From an uncultured Bacteroidales bacterium (GTDB lineage: Bacteria; Bacteroidota; Bacteroidia; Bacteroidales; Muribaculaceae), in NCBI GenBank assembly GCA_902795825.1, contig CADBML010000087.1:1-38815 (forward strand): a stretch of DNA of 38,815 nt. Direction: 5' to 3'. The notes beneath the pieces are model-generated. The model saw only the letters and a program-made list of their open reading frames with translations, was not told the DNA's origin and did no database searches. A program made the position numbers and the translations under genes. This document shows positions 12,090 through 34,030 of the stretch, piece after piece. The first letter of the stretch is position 1, and each line of letters begins with the position of its first letter.

Positions 12090-12339
12090 GTGCAAGCCGA
12101 GCGAAATGTCAAGAAAAAACGAAAATTTTTTTCTTGCATTTCCGAGGCGCAGCCTAACTTCGAGGCCGCCCCGCCCTCAACGTTAGTGCAAGCCGAGCGC
12201 AAAACAAAATAAAAGACAAAGTTTTTTTATTTTTTTTGCCGAGGCGCCGCCTAACTTCGAGGTCTTCACGACCTCAACGTTAGTAAAGCCGAGCGAAATG
12301 TCAAGAAAAAACGAAAATTTTTTTCTTGCATTTCCGAGG
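12086..12339. repeat. 2.6 tandem copies of a 96-97 bp hairpin-bearing intergenic repeat
   Basis: Units start with GTTAGTGCAAGCCGAGCG at 12086, 12182 and 12279. Each carries an A/T-rich bulged hairpin followed by CCGAGGCGC.GCCTAACTTCGAGG. Confidence 0.85.
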
Positions 12340-15741: not shown

Positions 15742-15864
15742 CTACCCCTCAGTCACTTGCACTTCGTGCTGCGTGACAGCTCCCCTGCTAGGGGAGCATC
15801 TTGCAAGCGTCTTGCGAAAATCCTCCCCTAGCAGGGGAGGTGGCTCGAAGAGCCGGAGGGGTAG
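15742..15864 (+). repeat. GC-rich REP-like element, copy A (inside the operon)
   Basis: Bounded by CTACCCCTC...GAGGGGTAG and contains hairpins GCTCCCCTGCTAGGGGAGC, CCTCCCCTAGCAGGGGAGG and GGCTCGAAGAGCC. Homologous to 18064-18183, 20720-20965 and 26710-26906. Confidence 0.85.
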
Positions 15865-15974
15865 AACTGTCCGAAAATTTACTATGCCAAAATATGGCAT
15901 TTTGCGCGCAATATAATGATAATAACTTAGTTAAAAACAGAAACTTGAGTAAACAACAAACAACACAATGATAT

Positions 15975-17928: not shown

Positions 17929-18048
17929 TTATTCTACGACGATTTTCTTGGCAGTGCCGTCGGTGTAGCGGACGATTACGGCTTGGCCGCGTACGGGTTC
18001 AATGAGGCGGACGCCCCTAAGGTCGTAGTAGCAATCGACTTCCTTAGT
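17929..18048 (-). pseudogene. orphan C-terminal fragment of a T9SS-sorted protein
   Basis: The minus strand translates to TKEVDCYYDLRGVRLIEPVRGQAVIVRYTDGTAKKIVVE*, a typical Por_Secre_tail ending. It has no start codon. The frame is closed upstream by the TAG of the repeat terminus at 18064-18066. Confidence 0.45.
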
Positions 18049-18183
18049 CGCCTCGGCAGGATTCTACCCCTCAGTCATCTCGCTGCGCTCGCTGACAGCT
18101 CCCCTAGCAGGGGAGCATTTTCTCAAGCGAACTCCAAAAATCCTCCCCTAGCAGGGGAGGCACCCGATCGGGCGGAGGGGTAG
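18049..18183 (+). repeat. GC-rich REP-like element, copy B
   Basis: Same architecture as copy A (CTACCCCTC at 18064, GAGGGGTAG at 18175). It has an extended left terminus TCGCCTCGGCAGGATT, and the third hairpin is replaced by CCCGATCGGG. Confidence 0.85.
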
Positions 18184-18307
18184 ATTAGACCGAAATTATT
18201 TCACATGTAATAAGCTTTTTGCGCTGCAATAATTTGAAAATCATCTTGTTATAAAACCGAAACTTAAATGCAATTATTAAAAGACTTGTAATTTTTGTTA
18301 AGGAGTC

Positions 18308-18767
18308 ACAAAAACAAAAAAAACACTTTTACTGATTTCAATCTTTTCAAGATAATCGGTTAGTGTTAGTGGCAAATGACGTAAACTTGTTTACGGGCAT
18401 ACGCCACCAACACCAACCGACGCATTATATGCTTTGAAATCAGTAAAAGCAAAAACATAAAAAACGCGTGGGTTATTTTATGGGAAACAATAAAGGCAAT
18501 TTATGAAAATCCCCGATAGGGATATTATACAACTTCGCATCAGTTCATGACCGGAGTGAACGTTATTATTTGGATAGGGAACGGGGAAAATTTATGTTCC
18601 GTCGTCGCGGCTTTTTTTTGTTTTTGCTTGGAAGTGCGTTAGCCAAAGGCAGTTCTGCGACATTCGGGCAAGGACTGTTATGCCCCAGCATAAACAGAAC
18701 TTGAACGAATGGCTCAGAATGGGCTCATAGAGCCAGCGGCACTTCCAAGTGTTTTTATTGTTTTTGT
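18308..18767. mobile_element. TIR-bounded non-coding structured element (MITE-like), copy 1
   Basis: Termini ACAAAAACAAAAAAAACACT / AGTGTTTTTATTGTTTTTGT are 19/20 complementary. It holds a 124-nt compound hairpin (18326-18449) and a right-hand domain closed by CTTGGAAGTGC/GCACTTCCAAG (18627-18637 / 18739-18749). Homologous to 27081-27555. Confidence 0.7.
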
Positions 18768-18859
18768 TTCTTCGGCGACGCGGGTTTATGCGCAAGTGAT
18801 CAAAAAATTATTGAAATTTATGTTTATTTCCTCGATGATGTGGGGCTTGGGGGAGGGAT

Positions 18860-20719: not shown

Positions 20720-20965
20720 CCACCCCTCAGTCACTTGCCCTTCGTGCTGCGTGACAGCTCTCACGCTAAGGGAGCATTTCTCGTTGGCGACTTGCGAAAA
20801 TCCTCCCCTAGCAGGGGTGAATCATGCGAGCCGAGAGCAGAATGTCAAGCCTGCGAAAATCCTCCCCTAGCAGGGGAGGTGTCGGCGAAGCCGACGGAGG
20901 GGTAGAACCCTGCCGAGGCGATGACGATGTGAAGCAAGACGTGGCTCGTAGAGCCGGAGGGGTAG
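20720..20965 (+). repeat. GC-rich REP-like element, copy C (composite, about two units)
   Basis: Begins CCACCCCTCAGTCACTTGC and contains two CCTCCCCTAGCAGGGG modules. It has two right ends GAGGGGTAGAAC (20897 and 20957), with hairpins GTCGGCGAAGCCGAC and GGCTCGTAGAGCC. Confidence 0.85.
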
Positions 20966-21069
20966 AACAATTCGGAAAATTCATGACTAAATTCACCATA
21001 TTATTTCGCATCATATTGCATATTAATTGATTATAAAACAGAAACTTAAATTTATATTCCGTTCGAACT

Positions 21070-21774
21070 ATGGCAGTAATTCTGAATATCGACACATCCA
21101 CGACTGTCTGTTCGGTGGCTTTGACTGCCGACGGGCTGGTGTTGTTTCACCTTGAGGACACTCGCGGGCGCAACCATGCGGCTCTGCTCAGCGGCTTTGT
21201 GAAGCAGTGTCTCGACTATTTGGCCGGCAAAGAGTTGCGACTTGATGCCGTGGCTGTGGGAATAGGTCCGGGAAGCTACACGGGTCTTCGCATAGGTCTG
21301 TCGGAGGCGAAAGGGCTCGCCTATGCCCTCGATGTGCCATTGATAGGGGTCTCCACGTTGATGACCATGGCTGTGTCGGTGATGTTTTCCCGCGAGGTTG
21401 ACGAGACGGCTTTGCTCGTTCCGATGATCGACGCGCGCCGCATGGAGGTGTATGCCGCGGTTTACGACTATGCCCTAAACGAAGTTATGCCCCCCACGCC
21501 GGTCATTCTCGACGCCGACTCCTTCGGCGGCTATGCCGGCCGGCGGCTTCTGCTTTTCGGCGACGGCAGCGTCAAGGCCAAGGATGTGATTTTGCATGAA
21601 AACGTGGAGTTTGTCGATGGCGTTGCCCCGATGGCGGTGGATATGCTGGCGTTGTCGGAACGCGCCTACCGTAATGGCGATTTTCTCGACTTGGCATATT
21701 CCATGCCGGCTTATTTGAAAGATTATCAGGCGGTGAAGCCGCGCAATCCGCTCGACTCGCTTCTCGAAGGATAA
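21070..21774 (+). CDS. tsaB: tRNA t6A37 threonylcarbamoyltransferase complex subunit TsaB
   Basis: 234 aa. ILNIDTSTTVCSVAL...GPGSYTGLRIG is the typical YeaZ/TsaB pattern. Confidence 0.9.
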   Translation: MAVILNIDTSTTVCSVALTADGLVLFHLEDTRGRNHAALLSGFVKQCLDYLAGKELRLDAVAVGIGPGSYTGLRIGLSEAKGLAYALDVPLIGVSTLMTMAVSVMFSREVDETALLVPMIDARRMEVYAAVYDYALNEVMPPTPVILDADSFGGYAGRRLLLFGDGSVKAKDVILHENVEFVDGVAPMAVDMLALSERAYRNGDFLDLAYSMPAYLKDYQAVKPRNPLDSLLEG

Positions 21775-21775
21775 A

Positions 21776-21811
21776 CAAAGGGGCGGCTCAACAAGAGCCG
21801 CCCCTTTGTTT
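21776..21811. terminator. bidirectional intrinsic terminator (tsaB / trxA)
   Basis: Perfect 14-bp stem CAAAGGGGCGGCTC/GAGCCGCCCCTTTG with a 5-nt loop, flanked by an A-run and a T-run. Confidence 0.8.
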
Positions 21812-21830
21812 GCCCGAGGCAAATAGGGCT

Positions 21831-25973: not shown

Positions 25974-26196
25974 CGAAAACTCCCAAACTTTTCCTCACAC
26001 TTTCCCAAAATAGTTATTAACATTCCACCACCCTTTGCCAGTTGAATCTGCAGACGAAACTCAATATCTGAAGATTTCTGAAATTTTGACGTTGTTGCGA
26101 TAAAAAACGCTTTTGTTTTGTATATTTTCCAATAATGTTTATTTTTTGTGAGAATAAATTGGAAATCCGGATAATATCATTCAATACAAATTGATT

Positions 26197-26669
26197 ATGA
26201 AACGTATATTCTCGTTTATTGTGCTCGTGCTTGTCGGAGGTTTCGCTTTTATGTCGTTTGCCGATGATAATCAAATTTAAGAATTAAAAGTGGCGGCAGA
26301 ACGCGGTGACGATGTTGCCCAAACTAATTTGGGATTGTACTACGAGATGGGCTACGGAGTCAAGAAAAATCCCGACAAAGCTATATATTGGTGGAAAAAG
26401 CCGCCGAGCAGGGCAATGTGGTTGCACAGTTCAATTTAGGCAATTGCTACTACAGCGGCAAGGGCGTGAAAAAGAATCTAAAAAAAACTGTGTATTGGTG
26501 GGAAAAAGCCGCCAATGGGGGATATGTTATGTCTCAGTATTATTTAGCCTCGTGTTATGAAAATGGAGAGGGTGTTGAACGAGATATATCGAAGGCAAAA
26601 TACTGGTATAAAAAAGCGGCGGAAAAGGGGGATTCTGAAGCGAAAAAAGCGCTTGAGAAATTGGAATAG
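26197..26669 (+). pseudogene. Sel1-repeat (SLR) secreted protein, disrupted by a nonsense codon and a frameshift
   Basis: The signal peptide MKRIFSFIVLVLVGGFAFMSFADDNQI is followed by an in-frame TAA (26278-26280). The same frame then continues as Sel1 repeats (AAERGDDVAQTNLGLYYEMGYGVKKNPDKAIYWWKK). A 1-nt shift at about 26393-26400 leads into the frame of ORF 26388-26669 (AAEQGNVVAQFNLGNCYY...). Confidence 0.65.
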
Positions 26670-26709
26670 TAACGCAAGTTTCTAAAGTGAATGAAACTTG
26701 TTCAATTCA

Positions 26710-26906
26710 CTACCCCTCAGTTGTTTTGTGACATGTTCATGTTTCCGCCAAATCGGTATCGCCTCGGCAGGATTCTACCCATCCGGCTCTTTGAGCCACG
26801 GTTTGCTTCGCACCCAATAGGCATCGCCTCGGCTGGGTTCTACCCCTCCGTCGGCTTCGCCGACATCTCCCCTGCTAGGGGAGGATTTTCGCAAGCTTGA
26901 CATTCT
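26710..26906 (-). repeat. GC-rich REP-like element, copy D (inverted orientation)
   Basis: Its reverse complement is AGAATGTCAAGCTTGCGAAAATCCTCCCCTAGCAGGGGAG..GTCGGCGAAGCCGACGGAGGGGTAGAACC.AGCCGAGGCGATG...GGCTCAAAGAGCCGGATGGGTAGAAT... This is colinear with 20838-20965. Confidence 0.85.
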
Positions 26907-26955
26907 ACACTAAGCTCGCACGATTCTTCCCACTATTATAAATTCATGTCAACTC

Positions 26956-27080: not shown

Positions 27081-27555
27081 ACAAAAACAATAAAAACACT
27101 TTTACTGATTTCAATCTTTTCAAGACAATCGGTTAGTGTTGATGGCGGATGCCCGTAAACAAGTTTACGTCATTTACCACCAACACCAACCGACGCATTA
27201 TATGCGTTGAAATCAGTAAAAGCAAAAACCAAAAAAACGGTTTGGGTTGTGTTATGGGATACAGTAAAAGCGCAGGTCTGATGACTATTTCCATACCGAC
27301 AATGATGATTTGGTGAAGTGTAAAGCTGTTCCTAATCTGTGTGAACGTTATTATTATGGACAAGGGAACAGAGAATATGTATATGTTGCGACGTCGCGGC
27401 TTTTTTTTGTTTTTGCTTGGAAGTGCTGCCAGCCAAAGACTGTTCTGCGACATTCGGGCAAGGGCTGTTATGCTCGCATAAACAGAACTTGAGCGAATGG
27501 CTCAGAATGGGCTCATAGAGCCAGCTGCACTTCCAAGTGTTTTTATTGTTTTTGT
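27081..27555. mobile_element. TIR-bounded non-coding structured element (MITE-like), copy 2
   Basis: Termini 27081-27101 and 27535-27555 are 21/21 complementary. It has the same compound hairpin (27099-27222) and right-hand domain (27416-27426 / 27527-27537) as copy 1, and lies in direct orientation relative to copy 1. Confidence 0.7.
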
Positions 27556-27580
27556 TTCTTTAGCGCGGTGTTTGTCGCTG

Positions 27581-32598: not shown

Positions 32599-32892
32599 TT
32601 ATTTCTTTTCTTTTTTCTTTTTGAGTTGGCGGTCGATGGCATCGAAGCAAAGATCGACGGCTTCTTCGAAGGTGTCGGCGGTTTTCTCGGCGAGGATGTC
32701 TTCGTGTTGTGGCACACTGACGCGGATGAGTGCGTTTTTGTTGAGTGCCGTTTCGGGTTTGACAACTTTCAGGGTTACATCGACATCGGTGATGTCGGCG
32801 TTGTGACGCGCGATGCGTTCTGCCTTTTTCTGGATGAACGATTCAAGCTTTTCTGCTGCGTCGAAGTGAATGGCTTTAATCTTAATGTCCAT
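32599..32892 (-). CDS. hpf: ribosome hibernation promoting factor / RaiA family
   Basis: 97 aa, MDIKIKAIHFDAAEKLESFIQKKAERI... This is a short HPF of the sigma-54-modulation-protein family. Confidence 0.9.
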   Translation of the reverse strand: MDIKIKAIHFDAAEKLESFIQKKAERIARHNADITDVDVTLKVVKPETALNKNALIRVSVPQHEDILAEKTADTFEEAVDLCFDAIDRQLKKKKEKK

Positions 32893-33796
32893 TATGTTCT
32901 CCTTTCTTTAATGCGCGTGGATGCGCTTGTTGATAATTATGTTGAAGATCACTAAAAGTCACGTGGGTGTAGATTTGCGTCGAGGAGAGCGAGGCGTGGC
33001 CGAGCAGCGACTTGACGGCGTTGAGGTCGGCGCCGTTGTTGAGCATGTCGGTGGCGAACGAGTGGCGAAGCACATGGGGACTTTTCCGCTCCGAATGTAC
33101 TCCGTTTCTGACCATGGCGTCGTGGACGATGTTGTACACCATCTTTCTGTAAAGAGGACGGCCATCGTGGCGCACGAATAGTCTGTCGCTTTCGTTGCCC
33201 ACGTCGGCTGTCCGACGTCGGCGGTAGTCGTCAATCTGCTGCGCTAATTCGTCGCCAAAAGGAATCACTCGCTCTTTGTTGCGCTTTCCGATCACTCTGA
33301 GCTGGCGTTTTCGGGTATCGACATCACGGTCGAGGAGACCTATCGCTTCGGAAGTCCGCATTCCGGTCGTGTAAAGGGTCAGGATGAGCAGGTGGTCGCG
33401 CACTGTGTCGAAGTCGTCGTCGGCGAAGTCGCTGTCGAGCATTGCGGCTGTTTCGGCCTGAGGCACAAACACGGGGATGTCTTTCGGCGGACGAGCAAGA
33501 GAGAAACCTATGGCAGGGTTGGATGTGCATTGTCCCGTCAGCATCAGATAGCGGTAGAGCGCCCTGACTGACTGAACTTTGCGGCGTATCGAACGGGCCG
33601 ACAGCCCTTCGCTCGACAATTGGGCGGCCCAATAGCGCACGTCGGCGGATGTCGCTGCCGAAGGGTCGAATGTCATGTCGCTTCCGCTTGTCAGGCTACC
33701 GATCCACTGCCTTACGTCGGCGGCGTAGGCTGCGGCGGTCAGCTCGGATCGGTTGAGCTCGTTGAGCAAGTATCGCTTGAAGTCGTTGACTATCAT
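32882..33796 (-). CDS. tyrosine site-specific recombinase, XerC/XerD-like
   Basis: 304 aa from MIVNDFKRYL; the track's start at 34021 reads through a terminator and promoter. Catalytic motifs are TGMRTSE, HVLRHSFAT and LGHASLSSTQIYTHV. It sits in the conserved rpsU-xer-hpf context. Confidence 0.85.
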   Translation of the reverse strand: MIVNDFKRYLLNELNRSELTAAAYAADVRQWIGSLTSGSDMTFDPSAATSADVRYWAAQLSSEGLSARSIRRKVQSVRALYRYLMLTGQCTSNPAIGFSLARPPKDIPVFVPQAETAAMLDSDFADDDFDTVRDHLLILTLYTTGMRTSEAIGLLDRDVDTRKRQLRVIGKRNKERVIPFGDELAQQIDDYRRRRTADVGNESDRLFVRHDGRPLYRKMVYNIVHDAMVRNGVHSERKSPHVLRHSFATDMLNNGADLNAVKSLLGHASLSSTQIYTHVTFSDLQHNYQQAHPRALKKGEHNGH

Positions 33797-33849
33797 GATA
33801 GTAGCATTTAAGCTGGAAGTCGGCCTGCCGACACTTCGTTTTCTTTTTT

Positions 33850-33857
33850 CAAAATTA
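33850..33857 (-). promoter_or_regulatory. -7 box (TAATTTTG on the minus strand) for xer-hpf
   Basis: Exact TAnnTTTG match. A second identical box lies at 33878-33885. Confidence 0.4.
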
Positions 33858-33987
33858 CTCAAGTTTTTCGGTAAATACAAAATTATTCCGAAAAAATTCG
33901 CCTTATTTTTTTGAAAAAAATGAAAAAAATGATTGGTGACGCGTCGCTGCGGTGAACCGACCTTAAGAGGCGGCTCTTTTTCCGGCG

Positions 33988-34030
33988 GAAAAAAACTGAT
34001 GCGGATTGTGGCAGAGCACAACCCGCATCA
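33988..34030 (-). terminator. rpsU intrinsic terminator
   Basis: Imperfect 14-bp stem TGATGCGGATTGTG/CACAACCCGCATCA, followed on the minus strand by GTTTTTTT. Confidence 0.8.

Follow-up and report, generated by a model that had tools for sequence, protein, structure and literature searches.

Inversion of a hairpin apex downstream of rpsO in a rumen Bacteroidales chromosome and the GxxExxY cassette around it

Two copies of a hairpin-bounded cassette

The window, i.e., the whole stretch of 38,815 nucleotides that was analyzed, belongs to the chromosome of a Prevotella-like Bacteroidales bacterium of the rumen. It carries two copies of a composite repeat, delimited with the help of repeat families (D4, D8, D12, D16, and D20, together with I17/I18, for copy 1) and an alignment of the copies. 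Copy 1 (18308 to 18777, 470 bp) ends in 21-bp terminal inverted repeats, ACAAAAACAAWAAAAACACTT, and copy 2 is found at 27081 to 27565. Judged from its sequence, the composite repeat is a decayed multicopy cassette consisting of a hairpin (A), a pseudogene for a GxxExxY/PDDEXK_3 nuclease, and another hairpin (B).

Hairpin A is 124 nt long in copy 1 (18326 to 18449, minus strand), where it sits between rpsO and aromatic amino-acid genes; its counterpart in copy 2 occupies 27099 to 27222, also on the minus strand. A 16-nt direct repeat stands on either side of copy 1, CAAAAACAAAAAAAAC at 18309 to 18324 on the left and CAAAAACATAAAAAAC at 18450 to 18465 on the right. T-rich direct repeats of 8 to 16 bp flank every copy of hairpin A, and the 3' repeat is also the conserved tail of the element. 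In many assemblies, hairpin A was found in conserved chromosomal synteny with aromatic amino-acid genes, rpsO, an rpoZ-like gene, tsaD, trx, and dnaE. No genes that consistently neighbored the other copies of hairpin A were seen.

The C-terminal remnant of the nuclease gene (KSPIGILYNFASVHDRSERYYLDRERG; 18507 to 18587, plus strand) was recognized by tblastn, with 70% identity over 27 aa and an E value of 3e-9. Its family assignment is based on longer ORFs at the same position in loci L027 and L090, which match TIGR04256 and PF13366. Forty-one close GxxExxY homologs were found, most of them truncated variants on short contigs; going by the consensus of P0002, P0038, and P0025, an intact GxxExxY protein has about 146 aa. 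Hairpin A lies about 85 to 90 bp upstream of the GxxExxY genes. Hairpin B (18626 to 18750 in copy 1 and 27415 to 27538 in copy 2, both on the plus strand and both identified by RNA folding) is unrelated to hairpin A in sequence but has the same four-arm design, in which an outer stem is followed by one long arm between two small ones. Its RNA fold in copy 1 scores -62.2 for the plus strand versus -53.9 for the minus strand (z = -6.4). The polarity of hairpin B is opposite to that of hairpin A, so both hairpins face outward, and the same T-rich 16-mer is present on both sides.

Hairpin A has an outer stem of 15 bp (CTTTTACTGATTTCA/TGAAATCAGTAAAAG), perfectly paired and nearly invariant across copies, two small and unlike side hairpins, an inner stem of 17 to 20 bp, and an apical mini-hairpin of the form GTAAAC-NN-GTTTAC with asymmetric bulges. 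The tip is conserved in sequence more strongly than any other part of the family. As DNA, copy 1 folds with a z score of -9 to -11. As RNA, the fold reaches -60.0 kcal/mol on the minus strand versus -49.5 kcal/mol on the plus strand, and this difference of about 10 kcal/mol arises because A-C mismatches in the inner stem of the plus strand become G-T or G-U pairs on the minus strand. In an alignment of 16 copies, 96.5% of the cells were paired. Double changes affected eight inner-stem pairs, compared with 2.9 ± 1.3 in shuffled alignments, and none of 500 shuffles reached eight. On the window-minus strand of the 14 copies outside the disputed locus, G-U pairs outnumbered A-C mismatches by 20 to 3. 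The conserved pairing and the excess of G-U therefore indicate that hairpin A is constrained as a single strand, either RNA or single-stranded DNA, of window-minus polarity.

Rfam searches at gathering and permissive thresholds, with both window copies and three canonical copies from other species, returned only sub-threshold noise resembling miRNA hairpins, and a tRNA/tmRNA scan gave no match to hairpin A. No element-like match was obtained in viral contigs or in phage and plasmid collections, where the viral 16-mer matches were chance hits to a single arm.

Orientation and extent of the inverted block

The tip of hairpin A in copy 1 (18374 to 18402, AAATGACGTAAACTTGTTTACGGGCATAC) had been reported in the preliminary description as the inverted form of the tip in copy 2 (27147 to 27175, GGATGCCCGTAAACAAGTTTACGTCATTT). 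The coordinates, the letters, and the match of the two tips as reverse complements at 28 of 29 positions were all confirmed. The identity in direct alignment, given there as 13/29, came to 12/29 on recount. In the two-copy alignment (families D8 and D12), the arms and outer stem that flank the tip are collinear and 92 to 95% identical. Inversion is the only reasonable reading of the copy-1 tip because substitutions alone would need 17 changes within 29 nt, while the repeat on either side stays about 95% identical; on this comparison, chance substitution can be ruled out.

We collected further copies of hairpin A by an outer-stem pattern scan of species-representative genomes and JGI metagenomes. 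Loci were added by searching for exact matches to proteins encoded near rpsO, near the prephenate dehydrogenase gene, and near thioredoxin; the same kind of search with the 372-aa YARHG protein of the window gave no match. The survey yielded 33 instances, representing about 17 distinct sequences and at least 10 loci, all from assemblies of ruminant-gut Prevotella/Bacteroidales. At least 3 hairpin A loci are present in the species of the window and at least 10 in other rumen Bacteroidales. Many metagenome contigs break inside or beside these hairpins. Each copy was oriented by its two unlike side hairpins. The canonical tip, which reads GAATGRCGTAAACTYGTTTACAGRCAG on the window-minus strand and has the orientation of window copy 2, was found in 28 of the 33 instances (about 16 distinct sequences), covering all other loci. 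A third paralog of the same species (L226 to L228) is canonical, and the copy-2 locus is canonical and identical in eight assemblies, namely, the window and seven others. The five instances with the flipped tip are all identical and constitute one allele of one locus, that of window copy 1. The tip of copy 1 is inverted, then, relative to copy 2 and to every other member of the family. Scoring the tip across all copies, as the preliminary description had proposed, left its suggestion of a recurrent or active flip/flop without support: every locus but one showed a single orientation. Point changes alone separate the strain alleles at about seven further loci with hairpins of this class; no inversion was seen there.

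The preliminary description had also proposed a comparison of orthologous loci in sister strains. Among strains about 99% identical to one another, the rpsO locus turned out to be polymorphic, with flipped, unflipped, deleted, and IS-disrupted alleles; since such closely related strains differ, the inversion must be recent. The flipped allele (F), which lies downstream of rpsO, is present in the window, L094, L097 (plus five similar places), L213, and L217. The window's allele is matched base for base in these four further assemblies, which come from different studies and pipelines; the samples with the flipped allele are ERZ27298115, ERZ28634119, ERZ27280517, and ERZ28612974, and the unflipped allele is present in ERZ27298066, ERZ12203356, and GCA_017413965.1. 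The canonical allele (C) was found at the same locus in L220, L221, and L010, and its two mismatched inner-stem pairs have the opposite polarity. The allele of L002/L093 is without exactly hairpin A and one copy of the 16-nt direct repeat (equivalent to window positions 18326 to 18465), a loss that looks like slippage between repeats flanking a palindrome. For the "empty" state of L002, deletion is the simpler account, as the hairpin is common to both paralogous units. One further locus, L007, has a unit of the copy-2 type downstream of rpsO.

In L001/L212, L003/L214, L004, and L005, a DDE_Tnp_1 insertion sequence lies next to hairpin A, about 25 bp from where window 18466 would be; in L001/L212 and L003/L214, a rearrangement accompanies it. 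Beyond this insertion sequence, a different locus begins, with a gene for a TonB-dependent receptor-like protein, and the rpsO intergenic region is therefore a rearrangement hot spot. The idea that hairpin A could be a MITE of this neighboring element was ruled out, as the ends of the insertion sequence are unrelated to it.

The orthologous alleles revealed a larger inverted segment than the 29 bp first described. Relative to them, the whole inner stem-loop of copy 1 (63 nt, 18357 to 18419) is inverted: it matches the reverse complements of L220, L221, and L010 at 62/63, 62/63, and 61/63 positions, respectively, and the same three alleles read directly at just 41 to 43 of 63. The flanks of these alleles are about 99% identical to those of the window. 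The inverted block, which includes the inner arms and the tip, measures at least 53 bp (18362 to 18414, the informative minimum) and at most 65 bp (18356 to 18420). Its boundaries fall inside the complementary arms TCGGTT/AACCGA, which form a perfect inverted repeat of 5 to 6 bp (6 bp at the limits of the 63-nt stem-loop), and the block is centered exactly on the hairpin. The inversion spared the G-T pair just outside the block as well as the two side hairpins and the outer stem, and the latter three are unchanged in both alleles. The side hairpins, GCAT-NNN-ATGC on the left and TCTT-GAAA-AGA on the right, keep their position and orientation. A locus-specific marker in the tip (CATAC instead of CATCC) was carried through the inversion. 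A discrete DNA inversion of the hairpin apex is thus borne out, by 28/29 positions against the paralog and by 62/63 against orthologous alleles. The collinearity of the surrounding arms, also claimed in the preliminary description, holds for the outer stem and flanks but not for the inner arms, which are part of the inverted block when orthologous alleles are compared.

The inversion of the inner arms is invisible in a comparison with copy 2 because Watson-Crick pairs look alike before and after inversion. Polarity was therefore read from mismatched or wobble pairs only, the palindromic Watson-Crick pairs being uninformative. The tip alone had been noticed at first because the Watson-Crick pairs were unaltered and the one polarity marker shared with copy 2 agrees. 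As a result of the inversion, two A-C mismatches became G-U wobbles, on the strand that normally carries the wobbles of the family, and the tip was reversed as well.

Some positions differ between the alleles in other ways. At pair L13-u, the flipped allele has G-C where L221, L010, and copy 2 have G-T, which fits an asymmetric switch or, equally, one substitution. The side loop of the flipped allele has the state ATA, as in copy 2, whereas the unflipped orthologs keep GAA. In L010 (1560 to 1640, alignment columns 300 to 375), the center of the cassette is sharply unlike that of all other rpsO-locus alleles, and its flanks are identical to theirs; this patch looks like gene conversion from an unseen paralog.

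Mechanism of the inversion and competing explanations

We consider it probable that the inner stem-loop of hairpin A in copy 1 was inverted once, or at most in two nested events, through replication template switching in a quasi-palindrome, and that the result is a fixed, strain-polymorphic mutation rather than a programmed or often reversing switch. The nascent strand would use the 6-bp complementary sequences TCGGTT/AACCGA to switch sides at the foot of the stem, copy the opposite strand, and then return. Recombination between the same 6-bp inverted repeats would give the same product. We infer template switching from the small size of the block, the 6-bp repeat at its boundary, its exact centering on the hairpin, and the precise deletion between direct repeats in a sister strain. 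That deletion (L002), which removed the hairpin between the 16-bp direct repeats, is the second classic replication instability of a palindrome at the rpsO locus. Hairpin-templated strand switching had been the first candidate of the preliminary description and, on the evidence of the block, the boundary repeat, and the sister-strain deletion, is the best-fitting mechanism. A symmetric inversion, as such, could equally well have come from ectopic conversion or from reciprocal exchange within the 6-bp repeat. The inversion is probably neutral, because copy 1 lies in a pseudogenized cassette.

The number of events depends on how a conflict between the two comparisons is settled: relative to copy 2, only the tip is inverted, and relative to the orthologous alleles, the arms are inverted too. 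For the event count, the family-ancestral state of the two marker pairs was taken as G-C, the state of the third paralog and of most of the family. A single inversion from a C-type ancestor to F, with parallel C-to-T changes at the same base pair, takes about six events, and an inversion of the tip followed by one of the whole stem takes about seven, with a required reversion in a side loop. We favor one inversion over two nested ones, although the difference between six and seven events is weak. Two nested events would mean a locally high rate of inversion, since both would have to fall at a single locus in strains that diverge by no more than about 1%. All mismatch or wobble sites of the inner stem (18362/18368, 18408/18414, and 27187) are on the second C of CAC[C]AA motifs on either strand, which suggests that these positions are a C-to-T hot spot and complicates the count. 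We had taken the arms of L010 as proof of a second inversion; this was dropped when L220, L221, and the third paralog showed that the family-ancestral pairs are G-C, a state with which one inversion plus parallel C-to-T changes is at least equally parsimonious. An apparent symmetrization of the tip in the third paralog was likewise dropped as a footprint of template switching, since its halves are not exact complements.

Other explanations were weighed against the same observations. Copies of the hairpin do exchange sequence, as the conversion-like central patch of L010 illustrates, and their palindromic arms make an antiparallel register possible, so the block might have come from another copy by ectopic gene conversion or recombination instead of an in situ template switch. 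The ATA side loop that the flipped allele shares with copy 2, against GAA in the unflipped orthologs, and the copy-2-type unit downstream of rpsO in L007 point in this direction. However, the inverse of the flipped inner region matches its own orthologs at 62/63 positions and copy 2 at only 57/63, the locus-specific CATAC marker survived the inversion, and among the copies seen no paralog gives a better inverse match than the orthologous allele. The donor would therefore have to be the same locus, for instance on a sister chromatid, which effectively restores the template-switch model, and we regard conversion from another copy as unlikely. Lower still is our estimate for an active, reversible flip of the apex that resembles phase variation, the driving enzyme being either a site-specific recombinase or a nuclease that processes hairpins (for example, an intact GxxExxY paralog encoded elsewhere in the genome). 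Both orientations do occur at the rpsO locus among strains about 99% identical, the pattern could reflect two nested inversions, and hairpins of this class are found beside genes of a PD-(D/E)XK nuclease family. Nevertheless, only 1 of about 10 hairpin A loci has an inversion and the roughly 7 other hairpin loci have none, each allele is fixed, with the same sequence in several samples, and copy 2 is invariant in its eight assemblies. The nuclease genes beside both window copies are pseudogene remnants, and the sole recombinase in the window, of the XerC/XerD type (32882 to 34021), lies 5.7 kb from copy 2. A block of 53 to 65 bp with a perfect boundary repeat of 6 bp is too small for the synapsis of known invertases. 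We agree with the earlier judgment that a conventional invertase is implausible, given these dimensions, the lack of an invertase nearby, and a single variable locus. Such a reversible switch is accordingly improbable.

An artifact of assembly or sequencing at the palindrome might be suspected, as many metagenome contigs end in or near these hairpins. We consider this very improbable, because the flipped allele is identical in the window and four assemblies from other studies and assemblers, the unflipped allele is found in three others, and the perfect inverted repeats at the boundary (5 to 6 bp) are far below any k-mer size. Hardly credible at all is the possibility that a linear, hairpin-primed replicon ends, or once ended, in this hairpin and undergoes flip/flop of the rolling-hairpin kind, as in the inverted terminal repeats (ITRs) of parvoviruses such as AAV. 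The likeness is superficial: the small cassette is closed on each side by an outward-facing hairpin of several arms and about 125 nt, and, as in the viral ITR, an internal part occurs in two orientations. But terminal resolution inverts everything within the outer stem, and here only the central arm is inverted: the AAV-type analogy of the preliminary description is contradicted because the side hairpins keep their order and orientation in both alleles, and also by the chromosomal context. Rather than forming a replicon terminus, hairpin A lies inside a chromosome, between rpsO and the aromatic amino-acid genes in conserved synteny. Its orientations across copies are far from the equimolar ratio of about 1:1, no gene of the Rep/HUH type was seen among the ORFs scanned, and the viral-contig, phage, and plasmid searches gave no match.

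Known cases of small inversions resemble that of hairpin A to different degrees. In plastid genomes, short spacers between short inverted repeats, such as in the trnH-psbA spacer, flip recurrently without a recombinase. The window case likewise is a small flip between close relatives, probably without a recombinase, although the genome and replication system differ, and here one locus of many is affected. Template-switch mutations that give hairpin loop inversions were reportedly described by Loytynoja and Goldman in 2017, and Ripley and Lovett are said to have worked on quasipalindrome hot spots in E. coli. As in quasipalindrome mutagenesis, a block was replaced by its own reverse complement, mimicking a cluster of substitutions. 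The hairpin-centered block, the switch points in complementary arms, the untouched flanks, and the preserved secondary structure are also shared with template-switch mutations. Loop inversions through template switching have been documented in RNA-coding hairpins, including those of bacterial rRNA, where the published cases mostly concern 4-nt loops and reach 7 to 8 nt (Monttinen and Loytynoja 2022; PMC8794818). Compared with these, the block of hairpin A is 53 to 65 bp long, has a nested mini-hairpin with asymmetric bulges, and is part of a repeated intergenic element; its dependence on replication is an interpretation from the features listed above. The invertible promoters of Bacteroidales, driven by recombinases, share the host order and the inverted repeats around a segment with two orientations. 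They differ from hairpin A in that the latter has a segment of only 53 to 65 bp, a perfect repeat of 6 bp, no dedicated invertase, invariant copies elsewhere, and no evidence of a promoter. A related proposal, in which the 21-bp inverted repeats of the 470-bp unit define an inverton, was rejected: all assemblies agree in the orientation of the unit, and what terminates it on either side is simply the T-rich tail of an outward-facing hairpin.

The inversion is real, recent, and of an ordinary kind, probably an unusually large and well-resolved member of the class of template-switch hairpin inversions. It provides a clean bacterial case of a large (53 to 65 bp) hairpin inversion in place that is polymorphic between strains about 99% identical. 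One such inversion can mimic about 20 substitutions and can trade A-C mismatches for G-U wobbles. Comparison with a paralog can understate its size because paired arms are blind to inversion. SNP calling at the strain level and phylogenetic work on metagenomes both have to reckon with such inversions.

Hairpin-flanked GxxExxY cassettes and other features of the window

The cassettes themselves, outlined here only, are a more novel feature than the inversion. At loci L022, L027, L090, and L222 to L240, GxxExxY/PDDEXK_3 genes, mostly truncated or pseudogenized, lie between outward-facing four-arm hairpins of 124 to 136 nt. The gene family also occurs in other species, where the hairpins on its flanks (126 to 136 nt; L022, L229, L233, and L235) are unrelated in sequence yet likewise built of four arms and facing outward. 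The T-rich direct repeats at the cassette hairpins have the form TGTTTTTG ... NGTTTTTNNTGTTTTTG. Between L233 and L235, which represent one locus in two strains (alignment columns 648 to 880), the gene and its flanks are identical and the downstream hairpin modules are completely different. Between L235 and L238, the same cassette and hairpin stand beside different downstream genes, with a right boundary near ACACAGRATATTACCAGTTACCC. The module swap in the first pair and the presence of one cassette at two loci in the second suggest modular exchange or mobility, and the hairpin-flanked GxxExxY cassettes may represent an undescribed family of cassettes or mobile elements.

Hairpin A can be compared with REP/BIME-RAYT systems ("REPtrons"), ERIC, and Correia or MITE elements. 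It is likewise a dispersed, multicopy palindrome with terminal inverted repeats of 15 bp and short direct repeats, and some of its copies flank a small gene of a nuclease superfamily in outward-facing inverted pairs, with others being solitary. Unlike in REPtrons, the associated gene encodes a GxxExxY PD-(D/E)XK protein and not a Y1 transposase. The two flanking hairpins are, in contrast to REP-like repeats, unrelated in sequence and alike in their four-arm architecture, and mobility is only suggested by the comparisons of loci. On a bolder reading, the four-arm hairpins of about 125 to 135 nt, with their T-rich direct repeats and outward polarity on either side of a GxxExxY gene, would be the functional ends of an undescribed family of small selfish or mobile cassettes in rumen Bacteroidales, the nuclease would recognize or cut extruded hairpins, and the inversion, deletion, and swaps would be by-products of this processing instead of ordinary errors of replication. 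This reading likens a PD-(D/E)XK nuclease acting on hairpins to RAYT acting on REPs, and we regard it as a long shot. For the GxxExxY/PDDEXK_3 family, the literature searched holds almost nothing beyond "unknown" on function. The occurrence of this large family of unknown function in hairpin-bounded, often decayed multicopy cassettes offers a testable lead to its function, and the hairpins that bound these cassettes show covariation and strand polarity.

The window contains several further repeats. Clusters of another repeat family, in both orientations and in several intergenic regions, are located at 15744 to 15880, 18048 to 18199, 20722 to 20981, and 26676 to 26931. This family is REP/BIME-like and is built on the palindrome CTCCCCTGCTAGGGGAG and on GGATTCTACCCCTC motifs. 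Three units of about 96 bp follow one another in tandem at 12094 to 12339, each with a hairpin formed by an A-run and a T-run (AAGAAAAAACGAAAATTTTTTTCTT); the first unit is identical to the third. At the 3' end of the tsaD-like gene (21730 to 21814, plus strand), Rfam reported a match to the enterobacterial sRNA STnc250, with a score of 43.9 against a gathering threshold of 42. The match consists mainly of a terminator hairpin and is probably a false positive in a Bacteroidales genome. Between dnaE and copy 2, a Sel1-repeat ORF (26190 to 26669) has an in-frame stop after the signal-peptide region; its gene calls vary between strains from 98 to 157 aa, and it is probably a pseudogene.
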